Positions 4,471 through 61,507 of a stretch of DNA of 64,000 nucleotides are shown here, piece by piece. The stretch is from Minisyncoccota bacterium (GTDB lineage Bacteria > Patescibacteriota > Minisyncoccia > Phycocordibacterales > JAQTLZ01): contig JAQTSY010000006.1 in the NCBI GenBank assembly GCA_028711065.1, positions 213 to 64,212 of the forward strand, read 5' to 3'. The position numbers and the translations under genes were made by a program. Position 1 is the stretch's first letter. The number at the start of each line of letters is the position of its first letter. The notes beneath the pieces are model-generated. The model worked only from the letters and a program-made list of their open reading frames with translations. It did no database searches and was not told the DNA's origin.

Positions 4471-4551
4471 TTTAGTTGTATTTCCAGTGTACTTTTTTGC
4501 TGTAATATTGCAACTGTGTTATCGGCATTTATTTTGTGATAGTATAAACTC

Positions 4552-4935: not shown

Positions 4936-5673
4936 ATGAGCGATAAATTTAGTCCAATTGGGATAGCGGTTTTTCTTGTGTTATTTGTTGGAATAGGTTT
5001 TCTTTTGTATCGAGGAATTAGTAAAAATCCGAATCCGACACCGAATGTAACAGCGACAGCGACTCCTTCGCCAAGCCAACCCGCTTCTCCTATTACTTCT
5101 CAAAAAACATCAAATACTATGGTAACTCTTAAAACAAGCATGGGCGACATCGTTCTCGAACTTTTCGCAGATAAAGCGCCAAAGACAGTAGATAATTTTA
5201 TCGCTCTCGCCAAAAAAGGATTTTACGATGGCACGAAATTCCATCGAGTCATCAGAGATTTTATGATCCAAGGAGGCGATCCTCTTTCAAAAGGCGATGA
5301 TACGTCTCGTTACGGCACTGGCGGTCCGGGGTATACATTTTCTGATGAGATAAATGCAGAATCTCTCGGTCTTTCCGCTGACGCGATCGCACAACTTGTG
5401 GCTATGGGATATAAATTCCAAACTGACATCACTTCAGTCCATCTCACGCAAGGTATTATTGCCATGGCTAATTCTGGTCCGAATACCAACGGGAGCCAGT
5501 TCTTTATTGTTACCGCGAAAGCAACGCCTTGGCTTGATGGGCATCACACTCCGTTTGGAAAAGTTGTTTCTGGCCTAGATATTGTGCTCGCGATAAGCAA
5601 AGTAAAAACCGGCCCGAATGATTTGCCGGTTACTCCTGTGGTTGTGAATCAGGTTGTGGTGGGGGCGAAGTAG
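4936..5673 (+). CDS. Peptidyl-prolyl cis-trans isomerase, cyclophilin type, with N-terminal membrane anchor and Pro/Thr/Ser linker
   Basis: [15 protein letters not shown]...[12 protein letters not shown]...[13 protein letters not shown] is the cyclophilin core. There is an N-terminal TM helix and a low-complexity [16 protein letters not shown] linker. Confidence 0.85.
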
Positions 5674-5686
5674 ATCGTATAACGAA

Positions 5687-5828
5687 CTTTTCAAAAACCC
5701 AGAAAACTGCCCCAGCGGGCAGTTTTCCTTGTGCTGGGCGCCGGCTGCTTTGTGGTATAGTTTTTGCCCGAAGCAAAAATTACACCACAAAGACCATGCC
5801 AGCCTGGCGTGCGCGGGTTTTTGAAAAG
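5687..5828. repeat. Copy A of a ~142-nt structured intergenic element (outer 14-bp inverted repeat, 10-bp terminator-like hairpin, 86-nt conserved core)
   Basis: The outer inverted repeat is cttttcaaaaaccc (5687-5700) paired with gggtttttgaaaag (5815-5828). The inner hairpin is aaaactgccc-cagc-gggcagtttt (5703-5726). The core 5729-5814 differs from 28165-28250 at only 2 of 86 positions. Confidence 0.8.
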
Positions 5829-5919
5829 TTGTTATTCGATCTTGTGGTGTGTCTGGTGAGTTTTGAAAAAACAGATCTTATCTTTTTCGTGATTTTTGCG
5901 ACAAAAGGAAAGTGTTATA

Positions 5920-7272
5920 ATGCACTTATCTATGAAAAATGTTTTGCCTAAAGTGCTGGGTGTCAACAACTGTGTAGAATTGAAGAATGGCAAAGAAGCG
6001 AGAGTGATCTTGCTCAATAATGCGGCAACAACCCCGCCTTTTGAGGTTACTTTAGAGACGGTAAATAAATTTTTGCAAACATACGGTGCGCTTCATCGCG
6101 GAGCAGGGCCGAATGCCAGTGTTACTTTTCAAAAGGTGCAGGCTGCAGTCAACACTTTGCATAAATTTCTAGGCATGCCCGAAGACCATGCCATGCTTTT
6201 CACCTCAAATGCAAGCGCTGCGATTAATCTTTTTATTCGATTACTGCGACTGAAAAAGAATGACGTGATCATTACCTCAATTATTGAGCATACCTCCAAT
6301 AATTTGCCGTGGAAATATAATACTGAGGCGAGAACTGTTTACATTAACGCTTTCGATGATGGCTCGCTTGATTATGAAGATTTAGAAAAGAAAGTTGCAG
6401 AGAACGCCACGCACTTAAAACTTATCGCGATAACTGGCGCATCAAATCTTACAGGGTATATTCCTGATATTGAAAGGATTTCAAAACTTGCTCATTCATA
6501 TAATGCTCTCTTGTTTATCGATGCGGCCCAGCTTGCACCGCATCGTCCTATTGATATGGGAAAACAAGGTATAGATGCGTTAGCGTTTTCTGCCCATAAA
6601 GTGTATGCACCGTTTGGTCTTGGCGTATTGGCTTTGTCGAAAGATATCCTAAAGACTGATCCGGTCGATCCGGGTGGAGGCTCGATTGATATGATTAGTG
6701 AAACTGATATTGTGTGGGCTCCGCCTATTGCTCGTCATCAGACGGGTACATGGAATGTAACTGGTATAATCGCAGCTGCTGCAAGTTGCAAGATAATAAT
6801 GGAAACTGGTTGGGACACGATTGTCGCGCACGAAAAAGAGCTGGTTCGTTATATGGCACAAGAATTACAAACCGTCCCAAACATCATCTTGTATGTTCCG
6901 CCAGAAAAATATCTTACAGAAGACCGCATTGGAACTTTCGCTTTTAATCTAAAGGGTTATCATCATGCGTTACTTTCGGCAATTTTAGAAAATGAATATG
7001 GTATTGAAACCCGAGCAGGGACAATATGCAATCATCGGCTTGTTCGCCGGTGGTTTCATGTAGACGATGTTGCACAGAAAGAAATCGAAAAGAAAATCGC
7101 TGGTGGCGACAGATTGGCTTCATACGGAATTGTGCGCGCGAGCTTGGCTATTCATAATACAAAAGAGGATATTGATGCCCTTGTTTCTGCACTGAAATTT
7201 ATTGCTGTAAATGGACACAAGCTCAAGTATAAGCCAGTGCCGGTTGAGGAGATTTATGTATGCGAAGAATAA
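5920..7272 (+). CDS. Class V aminotransferase / cysteine desulfurase-family PLP enzyme
   Basis: The class-V fold is indicated by NNAATTPP, an H...TSNASAAINL stretch and the SAHK PLP-lysine motif (ALAFSAHKVYAPFGLG). The ATG at 5920 has an AAAGGA RBS; the track start at 5896 is a TTG. Confidence 0.7.
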   Translation: MHLSMKNVLPKVLGVNNCVELKNGKEARVILLNNAATTPPFEVTLETVNKFLQTYGALHRGAGPNASVTFQKVQAAVNTLHKFLGMPEDHAMLFTSNASAAINLFIRLLRLKKNDVIITSIIEHTSNNLPWKYNTEARTVYINAFDDGSLDYEDLEKKVAENATHLKLIAITGASNLTGYIPDIERISKLAHSYNALLFIDAAQLAPHRPIDMGKQGIDALAFSAHKVYAPFGLGVLALSKDILKTDPVDPGGGSIDMISETDIVWAPPIARHQTGTWNVTGIIAAAASCKIIMETGWDTIVAHEKELVRYMAQELQTVPNIILYVPPEKYLTEDRIGTFAFNLKGYHHALLSAILENEYGIETRAGTICNHRLVRRWFHVDDVAQKEIEKKIAGGDRLASYGIVRASLAIHNTKEDIDALVSALKFIAVNGHKLKYKPVPVEEIYVCEE

Positions 7273-10655: not shown

Positions 10656-10764
10656 CGCCTTGGATGTATCATCCCAGAGAACGGCTTTAGTTTCAACTTG
10701 CTAGTCGAAAATGTCCTGCGCCTTCAGCTGGACATCTTTCGACATGATTTTTGTGTGTCAAAAA

Positions 10765-12300
10765 TCAGAAACTCTGAAGTATGCTGATATTTGCTCCTAT
10801 TTTGTTGAGCCTATTTGCCAAGTCTTCATAACCGCGATTGATGCTGTATACATTTCGAAGAATGGATGTGCCTTCAGCCGCGAGCATTCCAATGAGAAGA
10901 ATTGCCGCTGGACGAAGCGCGGGAGGACAGATAACTTCAGCTGCTTTTAATTTTGTCGGACCGTTTATGTAACAACGATGAGGATCGGCAAGAATGGTGT
11001 CAGCTCCCAACTTGTCGAGGTCTTTATAATAGATTGCGCGTTTTTCATAGCTCCAGTCGTGGATGAACGTCTGGCCTTCGGCCTGTGTGGCAATGACAGC
11101 GAAGAAGGGAAGATTATCCATATTGATTCCCGGATATGGCTGGGCGTGGATTTTATCTTCGAGGGCTCGCAACTTGGACGGATATGTTTCAATGTCGGCA
11201 AGATTGGTTCTTTCGTTCTCTGCCTTGTATCGGCGAAGAATTTTATAACGAAAGCCCATCTTTTCCAGTTTCAAAAGTTCAAGCTCCAAAAAATCAATCG
11301 GACATCGCATAATTTGAATTTTTGATTTTGTGACGATTGCAGCGGAGAGAAGGAACATTGATTCAATAGGATCTTCGCTCACTGCGTAGATGATCGGCTT
11401 GTCTATAGATGCAACGCCGTGAACGACAAGCGTAGATGAGCCGATTCCGTCGATCTTTACTCCAAGCGCTTCGAGGAAGAAGCAGACGTCTTGGACTTGA
11501 TAGTTCGCGGAAGCAAATTTTATCGTCGTCTTGCCGGGAATTAAGCTTGCTGCCATGATCGCATTTTCTGTCACAGTATCTCCAGCTTCGTACAAAACAA
11601 TATTTCCCGGTTTTACTTTTTCAGTTTTAATCTCGTAATAGGTCGAGTGTGTGTCTATCTCCACTCCCATTTTTTCGAGAGCATAAAAATGAGGTTTGAC
11701 GGTTCGAGAGCCAAGACGGCATCCGCCTGGCTGGGGGAGACGGAATTTCTTGAAAAAGTGAACAAGGGGGCCGATGAGCATGATAACGCTTCGGGTCTTC
11801 ATTCCAGCTTCAGTATCGAGTTTTTTAATGTCGAATTTTGCAGGAGGTTTAATTTCAAGATCATTGCCGTCCCATTTAATTCCCACACCGATTGACTGAA
11901 GCACCTCGATCATTCTGTACGCCTCTTCGATCTTCGGCATATTGCGGAGAATTGTTTTATTTTTGTTGAGGAGCGATGCAGAAAGAAGTCCCATCGCCGA
12001 GTTTTTTGAGGATTTGGTTACTATGGAGCCTGAAAGCTTTCTTCCTCCTTCGATGCGCAGATTCAAGGAGCCCGTAGAAAGATTTATGATTTCTTTATTG
12101 AGAGCCTTTCCGATTTTTGAAAGAGTTTCAGTTGAGAGATTTTGTTCGCCATTTTCAATGCGGGCAATAGCGCTTTGGGTAGTGCCAAGCATTTTGCCAA
12201 GCTCTGACTGGGTGATTCCCCGGTCATCGCGAAGCCTCGCAATGAGGTTTCCTATCTGGACGAGCTTTTGGTCGCCTTCTGGTTCTTTAGTAATTGGCAT
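10765..12300 (-). CDS. murA: UDP-N-acetylglucosamine 1-carboxyvinyltransferase fused to an N-terminal XRE-family helix-turn-helix domain
   Basis: Residues ~16-70 (LIARLRDDRGITQSELGKMLGTTQSAIARIENGEQNLSTETLSKIGKAL) form an HTH_XRE domain. They are followed in frame by a complete MurA (RIEGGRKLSGSIVTKSSKNSAMGLL..., catalytic Cys in PQPGGCRLGSRTVKPH, about 430 aa). Confidence 0.85.
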   Translation of the reverse strand: MPITKEPEGDQKLVQIGNLIARLRDDRGITQSELGKMLGTTQSAIARIENGEQNLSTETLSKIGKALNKEIINLSTGSLNLRIEGGRKLSGSIVTKSSKNSAMGLLSASLLNKNKTILRNMPKIEEAYRMIEVLQSIGVGIKWDGNDLEIKPPAKFDIKKLDTEAGMKTRSVIMLIGPLVHFFKKFRLPQPGGCRLGSRTVKPHFYALEKMGVEIDTHSTYYEIKTEKVKPGNIVLYEAGDTVTENAIMAASLIPGKTTIKFASANYQVQDVCFFLEALGVKIDGIGSSTLVVHGVASIDKPIIYAVSEDPIESMFLLSAAIVTKSKIQIMRCPIDFLELELLKLEKMGFRYKILRRYKAENERTNLADIETYPSKLRALEDKIHAQPYPGINMDNLPFFAVIATQAEGQTFIHDWSYEKRAIYYKDLDKLGADTILADPHRCYINGPTKLKAAEVICPPALRPAAILLIGMLAAEGTSILRNVYSINRGYEDLANRLNKIGANISILQSF

Positions 12301-13457: not shown

Positions 13458-13703
13458 CTCCCCACGAACTTTTCGGAAAACAGAATAGTTTCCCCTGCGA
13501 GAAAACTTTCCTCGCGCTCAGCTCACGGCTGTCAATGAGCCCCGCTTCTTACAGAGCGGGGTCGTTGACAGACCATGCCCGTGGCTTCCGCGATGTTTCC
13601 CAAAAGTTGCGGGTCGCTTCTCGTTGCGATTGCTTTTTCATATTCTAAGTGGTACTTTGATTTTGGAGTTAAAAGAGAATTCACCCAAACAAAGGAGGCG
13701 CAC

Positions 13704-14216
13704 ATGCGCTTAATTCAAGAGGCACAGGCGGTCTTTCTAAAAGGAATGGCCACCAGCAGTTGGGCAACCGGAGCAAAGTCAATACCGATTGTGGAACTTC
13801 CGGGGTATAAGGCAGTGTCGTTTCGGGATGGAGATTTTCTCCTCGTCGACATGTGGGCACCGGGCGACAAACGCTTTCGATTCTCGGGTTCGACAACGAT
13901 CTCTTTCCAGGAGACCGTTATCTGGGCGATGCATTACCAGGGATTTTGCTCGCCACGCGCCTCGCCCATCTTGAGAAAGATTCTCCTCGATACATACAAA
14001 AAGGGAATTTTCTGGGGAGGTCGGGGCGAGCAGTGCATGTCAGTGGACGATAAGTGGAGGTACTACAACCTTCTGCGAGCGGTTTCGCAGCAGCACTCAT
14101 TCTTCCACTTCAGTGGCGAAGAAAATCTCCAATACTCGCCAGGATGCATTCAGGAAGAACCAGATGCTCGGGTTGAATACTTTGGGCAGATGGTTGCTCA
14201 TTTCGACCCAGCGTAG
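13704..14216 (+). CDS. Hypothetical protein in a GC-rich islet
   Basis: A strong RBS AAAGGAGG lies 5 nt before the ATG at 13704. GC is about 52%, against about 40% in the flanks, and an intrinsic terminator follows. No known domain recognised. Confidence 0.5.
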   Translation: MRLIQEAQAVFLKGMATSSWATGAKSIPIVELPGYKAVSFRDGDFLLVDMWAPGDKRFRFSGSTTISFQETVIWAMHYQGFCSPRASPILRKILLDTYKKGIFWGGRGEQCMSVDDKWRYYNLLRAVSQQHSFFHFSGEENLQYSPGCIQEEPDARVEYFGQMVAHFDPA

Positions 14217-24105: not shown

Positions 24106-24151
24106 GTATACCCGGGCACCAACTTTAAAAAAAGTTGGTGCCCGGGTATAC
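24106..24151. repeat. Perfect 20-bp inverted repeat (hairpin) 9 nt upstream of the PBP2 start codon
   Basis: gtatacccgggcaccaactt (24106-24125), loop taaaaa, then aagttggtgcccgggtatac (24132-24151). There is no flanking T-run. Confidence 0.8.
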
Positions 24152-27953: not shown

Positions 27954-28112
27954 ATGTCACAGGATAAACTCATAAAACTCATTTGCCAGAACTGTAAGCG
28001 CGTAAACTACTGGTCCACAAAAAACAAGAAATCTGTAGAGCGAAAAATCGAGCTCAAGAAGTTCTGTAAATGGTGCAAAAAGAAGACCATCCATAAAGAA
28101 GGCAAGAAATAA
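27954..28112 (+). CDS. rpmG: 50S ribosomal protein L33
   Basis: The 52-aa product MSQDKLIKLICQNCKRVNYWSTKNKKSVERKIELKKFCKWCKKKTIHKEGKK has a Cys4 zinc ribbon and the L33 pattern. It is shorter than 60 aa, so it is absent from the ORF track. Confidence 0.8.
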   Translation: MSQDKLIKLICQNCKRVNYWSTKNKKSVERKIELKKFCKWCKKKTIHKEGKK

Positions 28113-28121
28113 CTCGAAACA

Positions 28122-28265
28122 GTCTTTATGAGACACCAGAAAAATCCCCAGCGGGGATTTTTCTTTGTGCTGGGCGCCGGCTGCTTTGTGGTATAGTTTT
28201 TGCCCAAAGCAAAAATTACACCACAAAGACCCTGCCAGCCTGGCGTGCGCGGTGTCTCAAAAGAC
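28122..28265. repeat. Copy B of the ~142-nt structured intergenic element
   Basis: Outer inverted repeat gtctttatgagacacc / ggtgtctcaaaagac. Inner hairpin agaaaaatcccc-agc-ggggatttttct. Core 28165-28250 is 84/86 identical to 5729-5814. Confidence 0.8.
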
Positions 28266-28316
28266 AGTTTCTCGCTCGTGGTGAATTCAGAGAATTGTGA
28301 TATTATCTAGCGCACT

Positions 28317-28390
28317 GGGTCCATAGTTTAATGGTAGAACGACGGTCTCCAAAACTGTAGGTCGAGGTTCGATTCCTCGTGGGCCCGCCA
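28317..28390 (+). tRNA. tRNA-Trp (anticodon CCA), CCA end encoded
   Basis: Acceptor stem gggtcca/tgggccc, D-arm gttt..gaac, anticodon loop cuCCAaa, T-arm cgagg-ttcgatt-cctcg, discriminator G, then CCA. Confidence 0.85.
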
Positions 28391-28487
28391 AAAAACAGCG
28401 TTAGCGTTTTTTGAGCGAGCCCAAGAAAGCCATAAAGATAGCTTTCGGCGAGGAATCGACCGATACTCCTCGTGGATCATCTCAAAT

Positions 28488-28521
28488 TATATTAAAAATG
28501 ACCGCGGGCTTTTGCGGTCAT
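28488..28521 (-). terminator. Rho-independent terminator of the minus-strand hypothetical gene
   Basis: On the minus strand the hairpin atgaccgc-aaaagccc-gcggtcat is followed by TTTTTAATAT. Confidence 0.55.
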
Positions 28522-28548
28522 TTTGCTATCCACTATGTTTTGAAACGA

Positions 28549-28845
28549 TTACGGCAACGGACTGAGATCCTGCGGAACGAGTTCGTTCCAACGAATCGGA
28601 TCTGTCGGAATTCCCAATTCTTCCGGACGCACCATCTCCACTTGCAATCTCGGTGACGTAATGTCACCATGCGTGGAAATTGTTTTGTCCTCGAAAACGG
28701 GGAAACAGTATGTCGTGCCTTGCCCGCCGCGTGTAGAGGCAAAGTAAATCTGACCCTCCGCGCCATAACGGAAGAAGCCACAGGCTATCTTTCCGTATTC
28801 TTCCCAGCAGATGCCAATCACCTGCGGTGCTTTCAGTTGGTTCAT
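28549..28845 (-). CDS. Hypothetical protein in a GC-rich islet
   Basis: The RBS GGGAGGA lies 7 nt before the ATG. A terminator sits downstream and GC is above 50%. The overlapping + strand ORF is taken to be its shadow. Confidence 0.5.
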   Translation of the reverse strand: MNQLKAPQVIGICWEEYGKIACGFFRYGAEGQIYFASTRGGQGTTYCFPVFEDKTISTHGDITSPRLQVEMVRPEELGIPTDPIRWNELVPQDLSPLP

Positions 28846-28966
28846 GTACTATCCTCCCATGAGTTAATCCCACAAGCATATAACACTAGTAACTACATTA
28901 AGTCAAATCTCTAGAACTTTTGAAAAAGTTTCTTGCCTTCCGTTACCCGAGCGATAGAATGGGGGT

Positions 28967-33541: not shown

Positions 33542-33614
33542 TTCGATTCTCTCTCCCGCACCAAAGACAGGGTTTTCCCTGTCTTTGGTTTTTGTGCCGG
33601 GAGAGAGAATCGAA
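33542..33614. repeat. Long composite hairpin formed by the tRNA-Leu 3' end and an inverted copy of it downstream
   Basis: Outer arms ttcgattctctctcccg (33542-33558) and cgggagagagaatcgaa (33598-33614) pair perfectly over 17 bp. Between them lies the inner perfect hairpin accaaagacaggg-tttt-ccctgtctttggt, followed by TTTTT on the + strand. Confidence 0.75.
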
Positions 33615-36338: not shown

Positions 36339-36376
36339 GTCCTCATTGTACTTTTTGGTGGGAAAAAGTCTAATGA

Positions 36377-36410
36377 GCCAAAAAACAGCCTTAAAAGGCT
36401 GTTTTTTGGC
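36377..36410. terminator. Palindromic terminator (14-bp perfect stem containing A6/T6 tracts) downstream of topA
   Basis: gccaaaaaacagcc-ttaaaa-ggctgttttttggc. Confidence 0.7.
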
Positions 36411-36475
36411 TAGAGAATAGCGTTCTGGTATTGTCTTCGGTCACAGATAATTTCCTCACCCATGTTCGGAAATTT

Positions 36476-36499
36476 CCGCGACCCCGACTCGCGGTTTTT
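36476..36499 (+). terminator. Orphan + strand intrinsic terminator in the topA/rel intergenic region
   Basis: ccgcga-ccccgac-tcgcgg followed by TTTTT. There is no + strand CDS upstream of it. Confidence 0.45.
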
Positions 36500-36571
36500 G
36501 CTTCTGCAAAAACATCGCTCCGTCTCACCAAAACCAGTTGCGCATGTGGCGTAGGCCACATGCTTCCGTAC

Positions 36572-49148: not shown

Positions 49149-49406
49149 TTGACCCGAGCAATCGGGCGCATTATAGGGGCTGACGAACACACCAGTGTCC
49201 GCCAGCCCTGTTTTCTACCCAATTTTCTTTCTTTCGGGAGCTAGTTGACATTTTTAAGGGCTGTGCTAAGGTATCTCCCGGTCAAGAAGTAAAAGGTTAC
49301 ATAAAAAACGACTCTAGTGGGAGGCACGCCTTTGTGGGCGCGTTTTCGTTACTAGATCACAGGGTGGGGAAGCCAATAGGGCAACCCCGTACACGGGAGG
49401 TGCAGT

Positions 49407-49982
49407 ATGTTGTATGCCACAAAGCACTACGGCCTGATGCTGGCCGGGTTCGTTTCGATTGTCTTGTTCAGTTTCTCGACGCGCGCGACCGAAGCCCAGC
49501 CGCAGAGCGATCAGACCAAGGACAAGCCGACGACGGTGAACAAGGATGCCAGCGCGGCGCCCGCGAAGGACGGCGTGAAGCAGGCCAGCAACACGGCCGT
49601 GCAGACGGTTGAGGTCAACAACAAGGATGGAGCTGTGAAGTTTCTGAGCTCCATCTGCGAGGTCGGCCTCAACCTGAAGCCGACGATCATCGGCACGCAG
49701 GACACTACCACGGTTTTCGCGCAGCTCGTTGACGCGAAGGCCGTAAACGTTACGCCCACGCGCGATTTTTGCATCAAGCTGGAAAACAACGAGGGCGTGA
49801 AGTACGTGTTGAGCGAGAACGACATGAAGGAACTCATCCTGAAGCTGGACAACTCTTCTCGCCCGGACATGATCACACTGATTCCGGCACTGAAGAAGGC
49901 CAGCGTCAGCATGAACGACGGCGCCAATAAGTCCACACTGGCCGTCAGCACGACCTCCGCCCCCGGCGCCGACAAGAAATAG
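49407..49982 (+). CDS. Secreted/membrane-anchored hypothetical protein, encoded in the same high-GC island
   Basis: The RBS GGGAGGTG precedes the ATG. The N-terminus is hydrophobic (GLMLAGFVSIVLFSFS). Confidence 0.5.
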   Translation: MLYATKHYGLMLAGFVSIVLFSFSTRATEAQPQSDQTKDKPTTVNKDASAAPAKDGVKQASNTAVQTVEVNNKDGAVKFLSSICEVGLNLKPTIIGTQDTTTVFAQLVDAKAVNVTPTRDFCIKLENNEGVKYVLSENDMKELILKLDNSSRPDMITLIPALKKASVSMNDGANKSTLAVSTTSAPGADKK

Positions 49983-50286
49983 TCGGCCGCCGGCAAAGGG
50001 ATTGGCCCATTCTCGATTCCATCGAGGTGGGCCAATCCCGCCCCAAACTTCAGTAGTACACCAACAATTAAATAGCAAGAACCCAATCACGTTCGTGACT
50101 GGGCGCAGATCATGACTTCATAATCCTCAAAGGAAAAGAGAAGTTGATCAGCCCTTGAAAAGGGAGAAAGGAGCAACATAGGAAACGACACCTGTGCCAA
50201 TCTTTTCTCCCTTTCAACTTTTCTGCCCCCGCTTTGAGGCGGTTTTTTATTTTTTTAAAATCATTTTCTTCTGTTATACTCTCCGT

Positions 50287-51370: not shown

Positions 51371-51441
51371 TGGGGGATCGTCTAACGGTAGGACAGAGGC
51401 CTTTGAAGCCTTTAATCGGGGTTCGATTCCCTGTCCCCCAG
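51371..51441 (+). tRNA. tRNA-Gln (anticodon TTG); CCA not encoded
   Basis: The U1-A72 acceptor pair tggggga/tccccca, the anticodon loop cuUUGaa, the T-arm cgggg-ttcgatt-ccctg and a discriminator G match the architecture of bacterial tRNA-Gln. Confidence 0.85.
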
Positions 51442-51588
51442 CAAAATTTCCAGAGGAAATTTTCTGTCCGAAGTAATGGGGATTACTTCGGCAGGGAATC
51501 GAAGCCTGTTTGAGTATTTACTGAAAGTAAATCCAAACAGGAAACTGCTCCTGTAAGGAGCGATACTCCCTGTCCCCCAGCCAACTCG
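51442..51588. repeat. Highly structured 130-nt segment bracketed by the tRNA-Gln 3' end and an imperfect direct repeat of it (att-like)
   Basis: The tRNA 3' end is cgattccctgtcccccagca (51424-51443). The repeat is cgatactccctgtcccccagcca (about 51566-51588), this time with CCA. The interval contains four stable hairpins. Confidence 0.7.
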
Positions 51589-53293: not shown

Positions 53294-56200
53294 ATGAAAC
53301 TTGCAACACAGAGCGGTCGTCATTCCTTTGTTTGCAAAGTGGTTTTTTGTGTTGCCTCAGTTTTTTTTGTAGCTGCGCTTATTAAGCCCACTACAACTTT
53401 TGCAGCTGCGAGAACTGCCTCGGTTACTGGTAACTGGAGTAATACTGCCACGTGGGGAGGCAGCTCTGTTCCTGGAGCTAGCGATACAGTTACTATCAAT
53501 TCAGGTGTCATCGTCACAGTAGACGTAACCTCCTCTGCAACTTCTATTACATTTCCAACAGCATCTGCTGCTACAAAATTAGTCATCAATTCTGGAGTGA
53601 CACTTACTGTCTCCGGCGCGGTAACTATCCCTGAAGGGTCGGGTGCGGGTAACAATACCCTCGCTGTAGGTTCCGGAACCTTGGTTGCCGGAAGTGTCGC
53701 CTTTACCAATGCGGCAAATGCCAAAAAACATTCGATGTCGATATCCACAGGCACGGTAACTGTCTCGGGTGCAATTTCTATTGACGGCTCAAATAAAAAA
53801 AGCCCCAATGTATCAATCACTGGTGCAGGAACCCTAAACGTGGGCGGGGCATTTTTTACTGGCTCTAACAACACAGGGCTTATTACTACTTCTTCAGGAA
53901 GCACGATAAATTACAACGGTTCGGGAGCTCAAACGGTGAAAGCCGCTACGTATACCGGAAATCTAGTTCTTTCCGGAAGCGGAGCAAAATCTATCAGTGC
54001 GTCTAATGTTACCGCTACGACTGCTAATTTGAGTATTGCTCCCGATTCGGGCGGAGCCACTGCCAGTATGACTGGATCACTTACCGTGGGGACCCTCAAA
54101 CTTGCTGGGGTGGGAAAGGCGAGTGGTACTTACGGTAGTACTTCATCTTCAGCAACTACCAAAACCAATACCTATTTTGCTGGAAGCGGACTGGTAAGTG
54201 TCACCACTAGTACTGTGGACACGACCGCACCAACTATTTCCAATGTTACGTCAGCACTCGCCAATGGAACGTACAAAGCGGGACAAGTTATTGATATTGA
54301 TGTTACATTTTCAGAACAAGTCACTTCTACGGGAAATGTGACGGTAAATCTTGATACCGGCAGGAGTTGCACGTTTACTGTGAGTGCTGCGACGACAGGA
54401 ACCTGCAATTACACCGTACAGGCCGGTGACACCTCAAGCGATCTTACTGCTTCATCCATTAGCGGAACCATTGCGGACACGACTGGGAATGCCATGACCA
54501 ACTTTACTCCTGCTACGAATCTCGCTGCCAACAAAGCAATCGTTATTGATACTACCGCACCGACGGTTTCTTCCGTGACGTCTTCCACATCAAATGGCAG
54601 CTACACCACTGGCGCGACCGTTTCCATCCAAGTAAATTTTTCTGAAGCGGTGAATGTTACCGGCACGCCGCAACTTACCCTACAAACCACTTCCACTACT
54701 ACTCGAGCTTTAAACTATGTGTCAGGAACTGGCGGGACAGCACTTACTTTCACCTATTTAGTCCAGGCGGGCGATAACTCCAGCGATCTTGACTATAGTG
54801 CGACGAGCGCACTTGCTCTCAATAGCGGTACCATAAGCGATACGGCCACGAATGCCGCCACGCTTACACTTCCAACCCCGGGATCGAGTCACACTGGTTC
54901 ATTGAGCAACACCTCTGCGATTGTTATTGATACGACCGCGCCGACAGTTGTGAATGTCACCTCATCAAATGCCAACGGTAATTATAAAGCAGGGGAAGTG
55001 ATAGCGGTGCAAGTTGTTTTTTCAGAGCCTGTGACAGTGAGCAACACTCCGCACCTCGTGCTCCTTACCGGGTCTCCGGCAACCAAAAATGTCGGCTATT
55101 CCTCCGGTTCAGGTTCTACCACTCTTGAATTCGACTATACGGTCGGAGCAAACAACTTCACTTCTGATCTCGAATACGCCTCGGCCGGAGCGCTCTCCAC
55201 CAGTAATTCGGGTTCGGCTTCTACAATTCAGGACGCTGCTGGCAATGCCGCGACGATCACCCTTCCGACTCCAGGCACAACAGGCTCTTTAGGCTATAAC
55301 AAAAACATCATCATTGATTCCACCGCTCCGACGGTCACCCTTACCTCCACCTCAACTTCTCTTACAAATGTTCCCATTCCTGTCACCGCTCGATTTTCTG
55401 AAGCAGTCACTGGGTTTACATCGGGAGATGTTTCTGTGATTACGAGTAATGCCACGGTTGGGAGTTTTGTGACCGTCTCTAGTTCGACATATACATTTGT
55501 AGTTACGCCAACCGGACAGGGTCTAGTGAGCATTTCTATTCCAGGTAGCGCTGCGACTGATATTGCGGGAAACGCAAACACCGTTTCAAACACACTTTCT
55601 CGCACCTATGACAGCGTCGCTCCGACAGTTGCGCTCACCACTTCAACCGTTTCCCCGACACTAACAACGCCAATAAGTTACACCGCGACTTTTTCTGAAG
55701 CAATGACCGGATTTACCGTCTCGGATATTACTGCAACCAATGCGACCGTCGGTAATTTTCATACAGTGTCGAGCCAAGTGTACACGTTTGATGTCTCTCC
55801 TATTAGTAATCCTATAGACAACGTGGATGTCTACACGTCCGTGGACGCCGGGAAAGCCACGGATGCGGCAGGAAATGCTAATACCGCATCAGACAGCGGA
55901 GTTCCCTCCTATATAAGATTTGATAACCACAGCCCCACTGTCGCACTCACATCGTCGGCCGGAGATTTTGTCAATGCGCCTTTTTCTGTTACCGCGACAT
56001 TTGCTGAATCAGTTACGGGTTTTGTTCTCGGTGATATTTCTGTTACGCATGGCACGGCAGGAAGTTTTACTCCTGTTTCCGGTTCTGTTTATACGTTCAC
56101 GGTGACACCGACGAGCCAGGCCCTTGTTTCAGTCTCTGTTGCGGCTGGAGTTGCGCAAGATAATGCACTGAACGCAAATCTTGCCTCGAACGTATTGCAA

Positions 56201-59200
56201 ACGACATACGACACTGGCGCCCCTACGGTGGTTCTTAGTACGGCTCAATCGAGTCCTACCAATGTCTCACCAGTTTCTGTGACGGCGACTTTTTCTGAAA
56301 CTGTCACAGGATTTACGGTAGATGATATTTCTCTCACAAATGCTACGGCAGATAATTTTCTTGGATCCGGTACAACGTATACATTTGATGTTACTCCTTC
56401 GGGTCAAGGTGCCGTGACAGTGAGTCTTCCCGACGGAAGCGCAATTGACGTTGCAAATAATAACAGCACTGTATCGAACACGCTGTCGTTTACTTACGAT
56501 ACCGTTGCTCCGACGCTCACTGAGGACACGCCAGTTCCAGCGCTGACGACGGACACCACGCCGAATTATTCATTCAGGACTAATGAAAACGGAACAATAA
56601 CCTACGGCGGGAGCTGTAGTTCTGGAACTTCTTCTGCGCTTGCTTCTGCCACCACAACTGTCACTTTTAATACTTTGGCGAATGGCAGTTATAACGACTG
56701 CTCTATTACTGTTACAGACGCTGCAGGAAATGCGAGCTCGCCTCTTATAGTTCCTGCTTTTACGATCAACAATAGCGATCCAGTTGTCATCTCATATTCA
56801 CCAGCGAACAACGCGACCGGTGTTTTGGCTAATGCCAATCTCATTTTGACCTTCGATAAGGTTGTTACTGCGGGAACGGGAAATATTTATTTGAAGCAAG
56901 GAGGAACTACGATCGAGACTATTGATGTAACGAGCGGGCAGGTGACAGGTTCTGGTACAAATATTATTACGATTAATCCAACCACGACGTTAAGCAGTCA
57001 GACCACCTACACTATTCAAATAGATATCAATGCATTTCATGACTCATTCGGGAATGGCTATCCAGGAATCTCTGATAATACGACATGGAGCTTTACCAGT
57101 GCCGATACGGTCGCACCTACAGTAAGCTCTCTTTCACCGGCAACTCTTGCTACAGGAGCACCCGTGCATTCCTCGCTTGCAATTACTTTTAGTGAAAATG
57201 TTATTGTCCAAAGCGGGGGATTCGTGACGATCCGCAAAGCCGATAATTCTGTAGTAGAAGATATTTCTGTGACAAGCGGCGAAGTGACTGGATCGGGCAC
57301 GAGTGTGATACTCATAACTCCGAGCGTTACTTTGGATGGCTTGACGAACTATCACGTTACCGTAACCGCGACCGCGTTTGCAGATAGCGCCGGAAATTAT
57401 TACGCCGGAATATCTGATGCCACCACCTGGACATTTCAGACACTCGATACCTCGAATCCTTTCGTCACAGCATTTTCACCTGCCAATTTTGCAACGGGAG
57501 TTTCGGCGACCGCGAACTTGGTTATGACGTTTGATAGAGCGGTCTATGTGGAAACGGGGACTACTACCATTAAGACCGGGGGTTCTACTGTTGAATCAAT
57601 TGCTTTGACTGATGGTACTAAAGTGACGGGCTCGGGCACAAATACTATCACCATTAATCCCGCCACGACCTTGAGCAGCCAAACGACCTATTACATTCAA
57701 ATTGATGCTGGCGCGCTGAATGACTCATCGGATGGCTTAGGTAATCCATTTGATGGAATTTCTGATACTACCACCTGGACTTTTACCACACTTGATACCA
57801 CCAATCCAACGCTTTCTTCTATTGCTCTTTCTTCGAACAATACACTTTCTTCGTCATTAGCGAAGGCGGGAGACACGATGACACTTTCATTTGTTGCAAG
57901 TGAAAGCATTTCTACACCAACGGTGAGCTTTACTTCTGGGGGTGTGTCGGTTGCCAATGCTGTGTCAGTTACAAATACCACCGGTAACAATTGGATCGCT
58001 TCATATACAGCTAGTTCTTCTGACACAAATGGAGCAGTAGCTTACAGCATCAATACCTATCACGATACAACTGGAAATAATGGTTCAGCATACACAAGCG
58101 GAACAGGTTCTGTGACATTTGATAAGACTGTGCCAACACTCTCATCTGTAAACCTGGTTTCCAATAATTCCACCAACACGAGAGCGAAAGTGGGGAACCT
58201 CATCACTCTTTCATTCACTTCGAGCGAAACAATTTCTACTCCAGCAGTAAGCTTTACTTCAGGTGGGGCACCGGTGACAGGCACTGTAACAGTCGCTTCT
58301 TCAACGAATAGTTGGACAGCTACGTACACCATGAGTTCTTCTGACACGGCGGGCAGTATTGGTTACAGTATAAATACTTTTCACGACAATGCAGGGAATA
58401 ACGGTGATGCAGTTACAAGTGGAACAGGGAGCGTGACCTTCGACAAAACCGTTCCGACTCTGTCTTCTGTCACCCCTGCTTCTTCTGCTACGATTAGTAA
58501 TGTAACCTCGTCTTCCGCTATCGCTTTCACTTCGAGTGAGGCCTTGGGGAGCGGTTCGGTTACCATTACCAGAAGCTCCGGAGCAGCCGATGGCACAGTG
58601 CATACTTGTACGCTGAAAGGCACAGCACTCGATGCGGGCGCTCACATCATTGATCTTTCTGATACAACCAATAGCTGTACCTTGGATGTTTCTTCTCTCG
58701 TTTCTGGCACTGTTTACACATTTGTGTTTGCCGGAAGCGATCTTTCGGGAAATGCAGCAACGTCTGTGACGAGAACGGGTATCATTTTTGACACCACTGC
58801 GCCTACGCTTTCATCCGTCACTCTCGTGTCCAGCAATTCCACAAACACGCAAGCAAAAGTAGGCGATGTTATAACACTTTCGTTTACGGCAAGCGAGACT
58901 ATCTCTCTGCCGACGGTAACTTTTTCTTCCGGCGGTGATCCTGTGAACGGCTCTATTGTTGTGAGAAATCCATCTGGTAATAATTGGACAGCCACCTATA
59001 CAGCGGGTTCTTCTGATACAGAAGGAAGTGTGACTTACCGTATCAGTGATTTTTCAGATAGTGTCAGCAATGCCGGCTTGGCGGTAACAACTGGAAGCGG
59101 CGGCGTTACCTTTGATAAGACAGTACCCACCATCACCAATGTCACCTCGTCAAAAGCCAACGGTACCTATTCTGTCGGTGAGTCGATTCCTATAAACCTT

Positions 59201-61507
59201 ACTTTTTCCGAAGCCGTCACTTCCGACGGAGAGGTGACCGTAACACTTGATACGGGAAGGACCTGCGTCTTTTCTCTCACCTCTGACACATCAGGAAGCT
59301 GCAATTATATAGTTCAAGACGGAGATTCGTCGAGTGACCTCAACGTCACTTCTATTCTAGGAACCATTTCGGATGTTGCGGGCAATGCACTGACTAATTT
59401 CACTCCGGCAACAAACCTCGCGGCCAATAAAGCCATTGTCATCGACTCAACAGCACCCGACACAAGTATTCCTACTATTACAGATGTCACTTCAACAAAA
59501 GGGAACGGCTCGTATACTACTGGAGTATCGATTGATATTCGCGTGACATTTTCTGAATCTGTGAGCTCTACGGGCAATGTGACGGTCACTCTTGATACTG
59601 GCGGAACCTGCTCATTCAGCGTGGCAACGAGCTCTTCCGGCAGTTGTAATTATGTCGTGGGTGGAGGTGAGACTTCTTCCGATCTTACCGTTACATCAAT
59701 TTCCGGGACCATAAAAGATGCTGCAAACAATACTTTGGTGGATTTCAATCCTGCAACAAATTTAGCAGATAATAAGGCGATTGTTATTGATACGACGATA
59801 CCAATCCTCTCTTCCGTTACCCCAGCGTCTTCCGTCACTATAGATAACGTCACATCATCTTCTTCGATCGCATTTACTGCAAGTGAGAGCTTAGGAAGCG
59901 GTTCTATCACCATCTCTCGATCTTCTGGAGAAACCGATGACACGATCCATACCTGTACGCTCAAAGGTACAGCACTCAATGCCGGCGCACACACCATTAA
60001 TCTTTCTGATACCACTAACAGCTGTACTTCAAATGTTTCAGACCTAGTTTCAGGTGCAGTTTATAGTTTTGTGTTTGCTGGAAGCGATTTGGCTGGGAAT
60101 CCTGCAGACCCTGTTACGGGCGACGAAGTTACCTATTTTATTACTGTGCCTGTTGTAGATGTAGCGGGTATCACTGTCACAGGTACTGGAGATGCAACCA
60201 CTATTAGTGCCGATGGAGGGACTCTCCAAATGCTTGCGAGTGTTCTTCCTGGAGACGCCACAAATTCTTCCGTGACATGGAGTATTGTTTCGGGAGGCGA
60301 CTTCGCTTCAATTGATGGAGATGGTCTTCTTACTGCCACAGGAAACGGGGAAGTTACTGTTCGAGCGACAGCAAACGATGGGTCAGAAGTATACGGTGAA
60401 CTTATTATTACCATAAGCGGGCAGACAATCCCTACCACTCCTGTTTCTGGCATTACAGTCACTGGTACTGGAGATGCAACAACGATTACTGATGCTGGCG
60501 GTACTCTTCAAATGTTAGCGGATGTACTGCCGGTTGATGCCACTGATTCATCAGTCACATGGAGTATAACTACCGGCGGAGACAACGCTTCTATTGATGC
60601 GGACGGCCTTTTGACTGCGATTGCAGACGGGGAAGTTACTGTTCGAGCGACAGCAGATGACGGATCGGAGGTTTACGGAGAACTTGTTATCACAATTACA
60701 GGACAGACAGTTTCTACACCGACACCGACCCCAGAACCGACAGCCACTCCTACCCCTGATCCAACCCCAACCCCTACTCCTGATACAACTCCAACACCTG
60801 ATCCAACTCCGACGCCAACACCGACTGCAACCCCAACCCCAACACCAACGAGGACGCACGCAAGAGCTTCTTCGGGCGGTTCTTCAGGTGGTGGCGGAGG
60901 AGGAAAAGCCCATGCCTTGAGCAATCCCGTATTTTGTACCTCAAATATCTATCCAACCAAGCTAATAAAATTCGGTGTGAAAAATGATCCCGAACAAGTA
61001 AAACTGCTCGAACGTTATTTGAATGCCTTTGAAAACGCGAAATTACCAGTTAATGGTGTGTATTCAAAAGATGATATGTCCGCCTTTATTCTCTGGCAGA
61101 AAAAATATGTACCCGAAGTATTAAGGCCATCAGTGAAAATCAATGAGGAGGGCTATGTAGCCACTGCCAGTCTTACCAAATTGAAAACTCTCTTTCTGGC
61201 GAAATGTAAACCTTTTCCGGTCATTGCTCCTCCTGTGTCCAATGCTTTTCCGTCAAAGAAAGCTATACCTTTCGTGTGGAGTCGAGATCTAGAATTTGGA
61301 ACAACCGGCAATGATGTGTTTGCCCTTCAGCAGAGTCTCATTTCCTTGAAGGTGGGCCCGGCGGGCGAAGCTCTGGCAAAGAATGGGCCAACTCATTATT
61401 TTGGGATATTTACACAGCGAGCGCTTATTGAATTCCAGAAAGCAAAAGGAATTACACCGGCAATTGGATATTTCGGCCGCAAAACAAAAATGTTTATTTC
61501 CCTCTAG
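53294..61507 (+). CDS. Giant secreted surface/adhesin-like protein (2737 aa). It has a signal peptide and about 20 tandem Ig-like repeat modules separated by ...DTTAPT... linkers. It also has two Big_2 domains, a Pro/Thr linker, a Gly/Ser tract and two C-terminal peptidoglycan-binding-like domains.
   Basis: MKLATQSGRHSFVCKVVFCVASVFFVAALI...AAA is the signal peptide. The repeated modules of about 95-100 aa start (I/V)DTTAPTV..VTSS.ANGSYK.G..I.I.V.FSE.VTV. Two Big_2-like units are present (VTGTGDATTI.ADGGTLQMLA.VLP.DAT.SSVTWSI). [20 protein letters not shown] linker follows. The C-terminus carries the PG_binding_1-like pattern (TTGNDVFALQQSLISLKVGP...GIFTQRALIEFQKAKGITPAIGYFG). Confidence 0.85.
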   Translation: MKLATQSGRHSFVCKVVFCVASVFFVAALIKPTTTFAAARTASVTGNWSNTATWGGSSVPGASDTVTINSGVIVTVDVTSSATSITFPTASAATKLVINSGVTLTVSGAVTIPEGSGAGNNTLAVGSGTLVAGSVAFTNAANAKKHSMSISTGTVTVSGAISIDGSNKKSPNVSITGAGTLNVGGAFFTGSNNTGLITTSSGSTINYNGSGAQTVKAATYTGNLVLSGSGAKSISASNVTATTANLSIAPDSGGATASMTGSLTVGTLKLAGVGKASGTYGSTSSSATTKTNTYFAGSGLVSVTTSTVDTTAPTISNVTSALANGTYKAGQVIDIDVTFSEQVTSTGNVTVNLDTGRSCTFTVSAATTGTCNYTVQAGDTSSDLTASSISGTIADTTGNAMTNFTPATNLAANKAIVIDTTAPTVSSVTSSTSNGSYTTGATVSIQVNFSEAVNVTGTPQLTLQTTSTTTRALNYVSGTGGTALTFTYLVQAGDNSSDLDYSATSALALNSGTISDTATNAATLTLPTPGSSHTGSLSNTSAIVIDTTAPTVVNVTSSNANGNYKAGEVIAVQVVFSEPVTVSNTPHLVLLTGSPATKNVGYSSGSGSTTLEFDYTVGANNFTSDLEYASAGALSTSNSGSASTIQDAAGNAATITLPTPGTTGSLGYNKNIIIDSTAPTVTLTSTSTSLTNVPIPVTARFSEAVTGFTSGDVSVITSNATVGSFVTVSSSTYTFVVTPTGQGLVSISIPGSAATDIAGNANTVSNTLSRTYDSVAPTVALTTSTVSPTLTTPISYTATFSEAMTGFTVSDITATNATVGNFHTVSSQVYTFDVSPISNPIDNVDVYTSVDAGKATDAAGNANTASDSGVPSYIRFDNHSPTVALTSSAGDFVNAPFSVTATFAESVTGFVLGDISVTHGTAGSFTPVSGSVYTFTVTPTSQALVSVSVAAGVAQDNALNANLASNVLQTTYDTGAPTVVLSTAQSSPTNVSPVSVTATFSETVTGFTVDDISLTNATADNFLGSGTTYTFDVTPSGQGAVTVSLPDGSAIDVANNNSTVSNTLSFTYDTVAPTLTEDTPVPALTTDTTPNYSFRTNENGTITYGGSCSSGTSSALASATTTVTFNTLANGSYNDCSITVTDAAGNASSPLIVPAFTINNSDPVVISYSPANNATGVLANANLILTFDKVVTAGTGNIYLKQGGTTIETIDVTSGQVTGSGTNIITINPTTTLSSQTTYTIQIDINAFHDSFGNGYPGISDNTTWSFTSADTVAPTVSSLSPATLATGAPVHSSLAITFSENVIVQSGGFVTIRKADNSVVEDISVTSGEVTGSGTSVILITPSVTLDGLTNYHVTVTATAFADSAGNYYAGISDATTWTFQTLDTSNPFVTAFSPANFATGVSATANLVMTFDRAVYVETGTTTIKTGGSTVESIALTDGTKVTGSGTNTITINPATTLSSQTTYYIQIDAGALNDSSDGLGNPFDGISDTTTWTFTTLDTTNPTLSSIALSSNNTLSSSLAKAGDTMTLSFVASESISTPTVSFTSGGVSVANAVSVTNTTGNNWIASYTASSSDTNGAVAYSINTYHDTTGNNGSAYTSGTGSVTFDKTVPTLSSVNLVSNNSTNTRAKVGNLITLSFTSSETISTPAVSFTSGGAPVTGTVTVASSTNSWTATYTMSSSDTAGSIGYSINTFHDNAGNNGDAVTSGTGSVTFDKTVPTLSSVTPASSATISNVTSSSAIAFTSSEALGSGSVTITRSSGAADGTVHTCTLKGTALDAGAHIIDLSDTTNSCTLDVSSLVSGTVYTFVFAGSDLSGNAATSVTRTGIIFDTTAPTLSSVTLVSSNSTNTQAKVGDVITLSFTASETISLPTVTFSSGGDPVNGSIVVRNPSGNNWTATYTAGSSDTEGSVTYRISDFSDSVSNAGLAVTTGSGGVTFDKTVPTITNVTSSKANGTYSVGESIPINLTFSEAVTSDGEVTVTLDTGRTCVFSLTSDTSGSCNYIVQDGDSSSDLNVTSILGTISDVAGNALTNFTPATNLAANKAIVIDSTAPDTSIPTITDVTSTKGNGSYTTGVSIDIRVTFSESVSSTGNVTVTLDTGGTCSFSVATSSSGSCNYVVGGGETSSDLTVTSISGTIKDAANNTLVDFNPATNLADNKAIVIDTTIPILSSVTPASSVTIDNVTSSSSIAFTASESLGSGSITISRSSGETDDTIHTCTLKGTALNAGAHTINLSDTTNSCTSNVSDLVSGAVYSFVFAGSDLAGNPADPVTGDEVTYFITVPVVDVAGITVTGTGDATTISADGGTLQMLASVLPGDATNSSVTWSIVSGGDFASIDGDGLLTATGNGEVTVRATANDGSEVYGELIITISGQTIPTTPVSGITVTGTGDATTITDAGGTLQMLADVLPVDATDSSVTWSITTGGDNASIDADGLLTAIADGEVTVRATADDGSEVYGELVITITGQTVSTPTPTPEPTATPTPDPTPTPTPDTTPTPDPTPTPTPTATPTPTPTRTHARASSGGSSGGGGGGKAHALSNPVFCTSNIYPTKLIKFGVKNDPEQVKLLERYLNAFENAKLPVNGVYSKDDMSAFILWQKKYVPEVLRPSVKINEEGYVATASLTKLKTLFLAKCKPFPVIAPPVSNAFPSKKAIPFVWSRDLEFGTTGNDVFALQQSLISLKVGPAGEALAKNGPTHYFGIFTQRALIEFQKAKGITPAIGYFGRKTKMFISL

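Follow-up and report, generated by a model that had tools for sequence, protein, structure and literature searches.

In a classical MITE (miniature inverted-repeat transposable element), the terminal inverted repeats are the sequences that the transposase reads. REP and REPIN sequences are imperfect long palindromes that lie just downstream of genes, vary by double substitutions that preserve the hairpin and are constrained symmetrically on both strands. A REPIN consists of two short inverted REP units, reaches tens to hundreds of copies and is accompanied by a RAYT gene in the genome. The bcr1 repeat of the Bacillus cereus group measures ~155 bp, is flanked by direct repeats, occupies non-conserved positions and is transcribed, and its predicted cruciform-like fold is kept by compensatory changes (PMC3184786). 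SPRITE is a terminator-like repeat, and the Correia elements carry outward promoters (PMC3184786). The subject of this report is a non-coding element of ~160 bases found in a 64,000-nucleotide stretch of contig JAQTSY010000006.1 of a Minisyncoccota bacterium (assembly GCA_028711065.1), a stretch referred to throughout as the window. The element is read here, with moderate confidence, as a new family of structured palindromic intergenic repeats of the MITE/REPIN/bcr1/ERIC/SPRITE kind, which would supply a terminator and, in one subfamily, a promoter-like arm, and whose copies have been gained, lost and recombined. Most likely, this previously undescribed repeat works as a portable block of terminator and promoter, and hence exemplifies a known kind of small bacterial repeat, and not a new class of RNA gene. 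Its known copies fall in one genus-level clade of Paceibacteria, within the Candidate Phyla Radiation (CPR).

Two closely similar copies lie on the + strand of the window, copy A at 5678-5835 and copy B at 28117-28270. They have in common a block of ~118 nt, beginning with CCAGAAAA and ending in GCGCGG, with a BLAST identity of 94%, and across a long hairpin of 86 nt they differ at only two positions, both of which are unpaired. An earlier note, made from the sequence alone, had proposed a repeated and highly structured non-coding element at this locus. That proposal is borne out by a core 24-mer that is present two times in the window but absent from all 100 shuffles, and by fold z-scores of -8.7 to -10 for A and B on either strand, the minimum free energy (MFE) being -77.8 kcal/mol for A and -78.7 kcal/mol for B where shuffles average about -40 to -42. 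Both copies fold as a three-way junction composed of an outer stem (P1), a short hairpin (hairpin 1) and a long hairpin (P3). The P1 stems are unlike in sequence between A and B and self-complementary within each copy. Some dimensions in the note need revision. The outer inverted repeat of copy A, put at a perfect 14 bp, has 16 perfect pairs (5685-5700 / 5815-5830) and reaches 21 bp when one bulge is included (5678-5700 / 5815-5835); the internal GC-rich hairpin with its U-tract is present, with a stem of 11 rather than 10 bp and a 4-nt loop; and the second copy, placed at 28122-28265, recurs as described but extends further on both sides. The 86-nt core was correctly seen to fold as a long irregular hairpin, which is P3 (5731-5814), a helix of ~33 bp interrupted by a UGG bulge, a single A.C mismatch and a 7-nt bulge, ACCAUGC, and closed by a 5-nt loop. 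The hairpin and U-run said to close the element in both orientations are seen in copy A but not in copy B, the 3' side of which ends GGUGUCUCAAAAGAC. The component parts, together with a third and divergent copy, C, are as follows.

5675-5677, + strand: left flank of copy A, TCG, 1 nt past the cyclophilin stop codon TAG (5671-5673); direct repeat of 5836-5838
5678-5700, + strand: P1 5' arm of copy A, TATAACGAACTTTTCAAAAACCC, with a perfect 16-nt core at 5685-5700
5702-5727, + strand: hairpin 1 of copy A, GAAAACTGCCC-CAGC-GGGCAGTTTTC, 11 bp with a 4-nt loop; A-tract, GC stem and T-tract, of the bidirectional intrinsic-terminator type
5731-5814, + strand: P3 of copy A, with its loop at 5768-5772 and the ACCATGC bulge at 5793-5799
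5751-5761, + strand: promoter-consensus motif of copy A, TGTGGTATAGT, TRTG plus -10 TATAGT, on the P3 5' arm
5815-5835, + strand: P1 3' arm of copy A, GGGTTTTTGAAAAGTTGTTAT, from the fold
5836-5849, + strand: right flank of copy A, TCGATCTTGTGGTG, comprising the (C)TCG direct repeat and the flank motif CTCGCT..CGTGST
28113-28116, + strand: left flank of copy B, CTCG, abutting the rpmG (L33) stop codon TAA (28110-28112)
28117-28137, + strand: P1 5' arm of copy B, AAACAGTCTTTATGAGACACC, from the fold
28139-28163, + strand: hairpin 1 of copy B, GAAAAATCCCC-AGC-GGGGATTTTTC, terminator-type; relative to copy A it shows compensatory changes
28167-28250, + strand: P3 of copy B, including a promoter-consensus motif at 28187-28197
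28251-28270, + strand: P1 3' arm of copy B, GGTGTCTCAAAAGACAGTTT, from the fold
28271-28283, + strand: right flank of copy B, CTCG plus the flank motif, CTCGCTCGTGGTG, after which come the promoter of tRNA-Trp itself (28296) and its gene (28317-28390)
13458-13624, + strand: copy C, divergent, abutting the stop codon of an MreB-like gene (ends 13457); from nhmmer, the covariance model and the fold

Further copies were sought with a 20-mer from the P3 5' arm, scanned exactly across 185,579 species-representative genomes. One of its three matches is a true copy, L003 (1143-1296), which directly follows rpsL-rpsG in the Paceibacterota metagenome-assembled genome (MAG) GCA_028710915.1. The other two, in Saccharibacteria (L001 and L002), were rejected as plain promoters, the same 20-22-mer standing just upstream of gene starts. 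A profile built from A, B and L003 (nhmmer) returned a weak colinear pair of matches at 13464-13616 of the window, and a covariance model built from the same three copies placed copy C at 13458-13624, with 53.5 bits and an E-value of 4.5e-15 over the full model. P1 of copy C is formed by 13465-13481 and 13595-13611; an 11-mer of its 5' arm, ACGAACTTTTC, is common to C and A, as is AAAAGTTG in the 3' arm. Copy C keeps the ACCATGC bulge (13572-13578) and the right flank (TCGCTTCTCGT), whilst its hairpin 1 is degenerate and the upper 19 bp of its P3 are an unrelated GC-rich helix of equal length, without the promoter motif. The copies are therefore mosaic in a manner that points to recombination between them, since A has the P1 arm of C (11/11 and 8/8) but the core of B and L003. 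Beyond these four, the covariance model found no copy in ~130 kb of related loci, exact 20-mers from the other P3 arm gave chance matches or none in JGI metagenomes and IMG/VR viral contigs, and a six-frame peptide query from the element, which would meet spurious calls of open reading frames (ORFs) over copies, had no match among 5.8 billion proteins. A 213-aa ORF past copy C, with a weak DUF5680 match, has its called ATG (13575) inside the ACCATGC bulge; its true start is more likely the in-frame ATG at 13704, which is preceded by AAGGAGG.

The fold is upheld by the pattern of substitutions between copies. RNAalifold, applied to A, B and L003, gives 63 pairs, 10 of which are changed on both sides: eight belong to P1, hairpin 1 has one, and the tenth, in P3, is a U-A that becomes G-C in L003. 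Structure-preserving substitutions, whose absence from other copies the earlier note had named as fatal to its proposal, are thus present as compensatory pairs. When all four copies are aligned with the covariance model, 30 of the 63 pairs are double-changed and pairing holds in 95.1% of cells; the count is not attained in any of 500 column shuffles, and sliding the partners by 1-3 columns leaves 4-6 such pairs. Because this alignment was fitted to the model, in which helix 6 rests on one divergent sequence, the counts lean toward structure. The outer arms of A, L003, B and C can be aligned with one another, having GAAC..TTTT..AAAC(C) in common and differing by paired substitutions and paired indels, and common ancestry of the arms therefore follows. 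The folding energies of the + and - strands are -83.7/-82.7 for A, -81.3/-79.2 for B, -78.9/-85.4 for L003 and -60.3/-66.9 for C, and hence favour the + strand in A and B and the - strand in L003 and C. As modelled by folding, the structural constraint is not strand-specific, and this lack of a consistent bias in MFE is better suited to a palindromic DNA element than to a strand-specific RNA.

All four copies start 4-9 nt past a stop codon and are co-oriented with the + strand gene that this codon ends, namely hpf-ppi (cyclophilin) at A, rpmG at B, the mreB-like gene at C and rpsG at L003. Downstream lie an aminotransferase gene (A), tRNA-Trp (B), a DUF5680-like ORF (C) and the gene of a secreted low-complexity protein (L003). 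The window itself is a typical stretch of CPR chromosome, in which a Pfam scan of ~38 ORFs showed housekeeping genes and unknowns. On either side of the outer stems stand short direct repeats, which read CTCG in B and L003 and TCG in A, and the right end of every copy is followed by the motif CTCGCT..CGTGST.

Sites A and B were identified in relatives, whose amino-acid identity to the window is about 80-90%, by synteny and by protein identities of 70-100%. Site B, between L33 and tRNA-Trp, is empty in two MAGs (L007 and L008) whose L33 is identical to that of the window; most other shared proteins are 75-99% identical, and MreC is 58% identical. Both have instead a plain terminator, AAAAGAGCCC-ACGA-GGGCTCTTTT / GGGCTCTTTTTT, beginning 4 nt past the stop codon and followed by the tRNA-Trp promoter. 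Site A, between cyclophilin and fmt, is empty in five relatives (L009, L012, L016/17 and L018), in which cyclophilin either adjoins or overlaps fmt, which is convergent to it, or has a simple terminator behind it. Within the genus-level clade, then, the sites are variably occupied. The earlier note had left a choice between a small structured RNA and a MITE/REP-like mobile hairpin; the empty sites, the mosaicism and the lack of a strand preference favour the latter.

Several observations concern the surroundings of these sites. The class-V aminotransferase (cysteine desulfurase-like) gene at 5932-7272 is inserted between cyclophilin and fmt by comparison with six related loci, and the five relatives with an empty site A lack it. 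The idea of a gene cassette, in which element A travels with this gene, was rejected, as the closest homologues of the aminotransferase (82-84% identity), found in a branched-chain ABC-transporter cluster of other Patescibacteria, have no upstream element. Past tRNA-Trp, the window has 576 nt (28391-28966) in which the only ORF, of 98 aa on the minus strand, is without a Pfam match, whereas L007 (5771-6855) has cupin and methyltransferase genes between tRNA-Trp and mgsA; because gene content differs past tRNA-Trp, copy B, like copy A, adjoins a rearrangement breakpoint. In L011 (GCA_040384425.1, 10664-10945), site A holds, after cyclophilin, an unrelated insert of ~175 nt with CTCG on both sides. 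This insert (10671-10838) has a perfect 18-bp inverted repeat, CCCATACCTTTGGAGAAA / TTTCTCCAAAGGTATGGG, and a fold z-score of -6.9, and after it comes a stretch that matches the right end of copy A at 18/18 positions (GAAAAGTTGTTATTCGAT). With 9.6 bits from the covariance model it is analogous to the element, homology not being demonstrable, and it suggests turnover of such elements at site A. The mreB-like/holB spacer of GCA_028710915.1 (L009, 17422-17544), orthologous in position to copy C, has a perfect 16-bp inverted repeat, GTGACGCTCACTTTTG / CAAAAGTGAGCGTCAC, enclosing 91 nt; its 5' arm resembles that of C, and its interior is not alignable.

Among the described repeats, bcr1 resembles the element in size, non-coding character, variable distribution between relatives, direct repeats and compensated fold (PMC3184786). 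The two differ in that bcr1 has many copies per genome and is transcribed, whereas the element has one to three copies per sampled genome or contig, and only the element has a three-way junction with an embedded putative terminator and a promoter-consensus arm; the two are not expected to be related in sequence. With MITEs, including the Correia/NEMIS elements of Neisseria, it has in common its shortness, non-autonomy, terminal inverted repeats, possible target duplication, stable RNA hairpin and filled and empty sites (PMC3184786). Each of A, B, L003 and C bears terminal inverted repeats with arms of 16-21 bp, and filled and empty orthologous sites exist for both A and B. However, the terminal repeats of a MITE are conserved and match a parent insertion sequence, whereas the arms of the element vary by 15-35%, with compensating changes, around an interior that is ~97% conserved. 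For this reason, the element is not a classical MITE. Like REP and REPIN sequences, it is palindromic, follows genes, undergoes hairpin-preserving double substitutions and is strand-symmetric; it departs from them in its few copies (three in 64 kb), its other architecture and the absence of a Y1/HUH gene, no Y1_Tnp match being found among the window ORFs scanned. Terminator-like repeats such as SPRITE similarly place a terminator-shaped hairpin at gene ends (PMC3184786), but the putative terminator of the element is one of three helices, lying inside a stem of ~20 bp and followed by a 33-bp hairpin. The enterobacterial ERIC/IRU repeats (127 bp) are likewise imperfect palindromes of transcribed intergenic regions, strikingly conserved in sequence and differing in position between species (in part from PMC2759123); their hosts belong to an unrelated phylum, and the copy number of the element is far lower.

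The element was also compared with known RNA families and other systems. In the window, Rfam models matched only three tRNAs. On the element itself no family reached its gathering threshold, the best score being 19.4 bits against a gathering value of 50 (E 0.075, Leu leader), and the L003 copy had no match, in agreement with the earlier statement that the element is none of tRNA, signal recognition particle RNA, 6S, RNase P or tmRNA. Matches at relaxed E-values (mir families, RNA-OUT and RNAI) were dismissed as meaningless hairpin hits, and distant BLASTN against plasmids and phages gave no match. An integron attC site (RYYYAAC ... GTTRRRY) was considered, as the arms have RAAC/GTTY, but the purine and pyrimidine runs misfit, the upstream genes are core housekeeping genes and not cassettes, and no integrase was found among the window ORFs scanned. 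A reading as IS200/IS605 ends was set aside since the two hairpins are unlike each other, and a guide or target role of the variable outer arms was rejected in that they have no second match in the available sequence. Small-protein coding was likewise rejected: where the bulge has ATG, copy B has CTG, and the ORFs show no conservation. The minus-strand ORFs that arise from the repeat (5575..5790 and 27957..28226) run into the antisense of the upstream genes and are read as spurious, as had been supposed.

Within the element, two parts have the appearance of transcription signals. Hairpin 1 has the attributes of an intrinsic terminator, namely a GC-rich stem, a short loop, a 3' U-tract and a position just past a gene, and would on these grounds terminate transcription of the upstream gene. 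Its stem has six GC-rich pairs extended by A:U pairs and is followed by UUUUCCUU or UUUUUCUUU. This form matches other terminator-like hairpins of the genome (inverted repeats I7, I8 and I13), and the plain terminator at the relatives' empty site B is of the same design. A terminator scan flags hairpin 1 of copy A on the minus strand; on the plus strand, the scan counts the U-tract within the stem.

The 5' arm of P3 (TTTGTGGTATAGT) fits, in the A/B/L003 subfamily, the putative promoter consensus of this genome, TRTGnTAnnnT, of the sigma-70-type extended -10 kind, which occurs at 4535, 12319 (- strand), 14300, 16814, 28296 and 33762. Upstream of hpf, holB, parB and the EPSP synthase gene, such motifs end 6-7 nt short of the ATG, a spacing which suggests that leaderless mRNAs may be common in this genome; the motif at 28296 stands ~10 nt before the mature 5' end of tRNA-Trp. 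On the two strands of the window together (128 kb), the strict form TGTGnTAnnnT is found six times: twice within elements, three times at 6-9 nt ahead of the start of a gene or tRNA, and once (49262) with no gene assigned to it. The chance of such a match within an 86-nt palindrome is estimated at ~1% (172 positions x 4^-7). The only imperfections of the upper P3 helix, the A.C mismatch (5757) and a G.T wobble (5760), both fall in the -10 hexamer, the mismatch exactly at its second position. As a result, the minus-strand mirror of the motif is spoiled, reading TGTAAT, without the key adenine. The predicted transcription start of copy A is at about 5768-5771, in the P3 loop, from which the arm, if it is an active promoter, would direct transcription toward the downstream gene.

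On the reading as a mobile palindromic repeat, the element would act at the boundary between two transcription units. Hairpin 1 would terminate the upstream gene and the P3 arm would restart transcription toward the downstream gene, with a start site in the loop. The fold of P1 and P3, formed in read-through RNA or in single-stranded or extruded DNA, could serve as a barrier or as a 3'-end protector; alternatively, it could be the recognition target of a trans-acting copying machinery. Spread may have occurred by transposition-like insertion at (C)TCG, by recombination between copies, or by both.

A number of points weigh against this reading. The known family is four copies in two MAGs, and no transposase, HUH/RAYT protein, integrase or reverse transcriptase was recognised by Pfam among the ~38 window ORFs scanned. 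The (C)TCG flank is identical in every copy, though degenerate in C, and no empty site with a single CTCG was recovered, so that the apparent duplication could be part of the conserved unit or reflect a target preference. The terminal repeats are not conserved between copies: P1 diverges by 15-35%, while the 86-nt P3 retains ~97% identity across genomes in which proteins are ~80% identical, and such near-invariance could call for strong sequence-specific selection, gene conversion or recent transfer. Copy C is without the promoter motif and without a good hairpin 1, and a terminator-promoter function therefore cannot be the constraint that maintains the fold throughout the family.

On a rival explanation, the copies might be paralogues of a structured small-RNA gene, or of a product derived from a 3' untranslated region, with P3 and the ACCAUGC bulge binding a protein or an RNA. 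This is considered unlikely, although there is strong covariation in all helices, the 7-nt bulge is kept in A, L003 and C even where the helix above it is wholly replaced, and P3 is conserved to the degree just described. Also in its favour, the copies lie directly behind, and co-oriented with, translation-related or highly expressed genes (hpf-ppi, rpmG, rpsG and mreB-like), and the element is absent from Rfam. However, transcription of an RNA from the + strand would have to continue past the canonical terminator, hairpin 1, that lies in its own 5' third, and an element starting 4 nt past a stop codon leaves no room for an upstream promoter. Moreover, the MFE shows no consistent strand preference and the helices lack the wobble-pair asymmetry typical of a strand-specific RNA, orthologous sites are empty in close relatives, in one case with a plain terminator instead, copy C has lost the conserved P3 sequence, and the distribution of the family is extremely narrow. 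A different account, in which only the ~118-nt core is mobile and inserts into the loops of pre-existing palindromes, so that the outer stems are host hairpins, is rather improbable. It would explain why the near-identity of A and B ends abruptly at CC|AGAAAA and GCGCGG, beyond which the arms differ and yet are self-complementary, and unrelated long-range inverted repeats do occur at comparable positions after stop codons, in L011 (10671-10838) and L009 (17422-17544). Nevertheless, the outer arms can be aligned across all copies and differ by paired substitutions and indels, the short terminator stem at the relatives' empty site B is a different one and shows no trace of the arms of B, and the right-flank motif travels with the element.

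The variable outer stem, small hairpin and long irregular hairpin also recall the architecture of a retron non-coding RNA, which has an outer a1/a2 stem, a small msr hairpin and a long msd hairpin. The element might accordingly be a retron-like template RNA, or a hairpin-embedded promoter acting on single-stranded DNA as at the sso sites of plasmids or Frpo of the F plasmid, copied via a single-stranded or reverse-transcribed intermediate. The position of the promoter motif in a duplex stem facing the loop, with an A.C mismatch at the second position of the -10 hexamer, would be in keeping with this, as would a constraint that is symmetric between strands. Against it, no reverse transcriptase, Rep or relaxase adjoins the copies or is present among the window ORFs scanned, where a retron would have a reverse transcriptase domain beside it; all copies lie in chromosomal housekeeping contexts; there is neither plasmid or phage similarity nor an Rfam match at or near threshold; and copy C is without the promoter motif. 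Of the explanations considered, it is the least probable. A related proposal, to which very little probability is attached, is that the fold, being more than tolerated selfish DNA, forms a self-contained copying unit, in which the P3 promoter would work in hairpin form with the -10 adenine mismatched as in sso/Frpo, P1 would correspond to retron a1/a2, and a trans-acting enzyme would spread the element via a single-stranded DNA or RNA intermediate.

The genomes of CPR/Patescibacteria are very small, few mobile or repetitive elements have been recognised in them, and hardly any of their regulatory RNA has been characterised. If the preferred reading of a mobile palindromic repeat is correct, a covarying, multi-copy element that couples a terminator with a promoter-consensus hairpin, and that close relatives gain and lose, would illustrate how transcription-unit boundaries are rebuilt in CPR genomes. 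The element also explains spurious ORF calls in the annotations of these genomes, and the covariance model is ready for a survey of the clade. That the 86-nt hairpin is near-invariant while the outer stems covary freely could be a sign of a sequence-specific binding partner.

Other structured or otherwise distinctive spots occur in the window. The spacer between topA and relA/spoT (36339-36571, - strand) is very structured (MFE -98.1, z -8.7). One of its hairpins, GUUUUUGC-AGAA-GCAAAAAC, resembles the apex of P3, and another is a perfect 17-bp terminator; Rfam at E<=1 returned generic hairpin matches only, and the region could be an unannotated small RNA. Inverted partial copies of tRNA 3' ends stand beside two tRNA genes, that of tRNA-Leu at 33542-33614 (27-nt arms, 85%) and that of tRNA-Gln at 51414-51511 (20-nt arms, 85%), and may be what remains of integration or recombination events at tRNA ends. 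In the mreC-PBP2 spacer (24106-24151), a palindrome of 21 perfect pairs, GTATACCCGGGCACCAACTTT / AAAGTTGGTGCCCGGGTATAC, closes on a 4-nt loop and far exceeds the usual length of terminator stems in this genome. Upstream of dnaX, ~1 kb (49149-50193) has only overlapping ORFs on both strands, without a Pfam match; it includes the promoter-consensus motif at 49262 and a hairpin with 33-nt arms (49607-49674), has no Rfam match at E<=0.1, and could represent either an orphan gene or a locus of non-coding RNA. A single ORF of 2,737 aa occupies 53294-61507.

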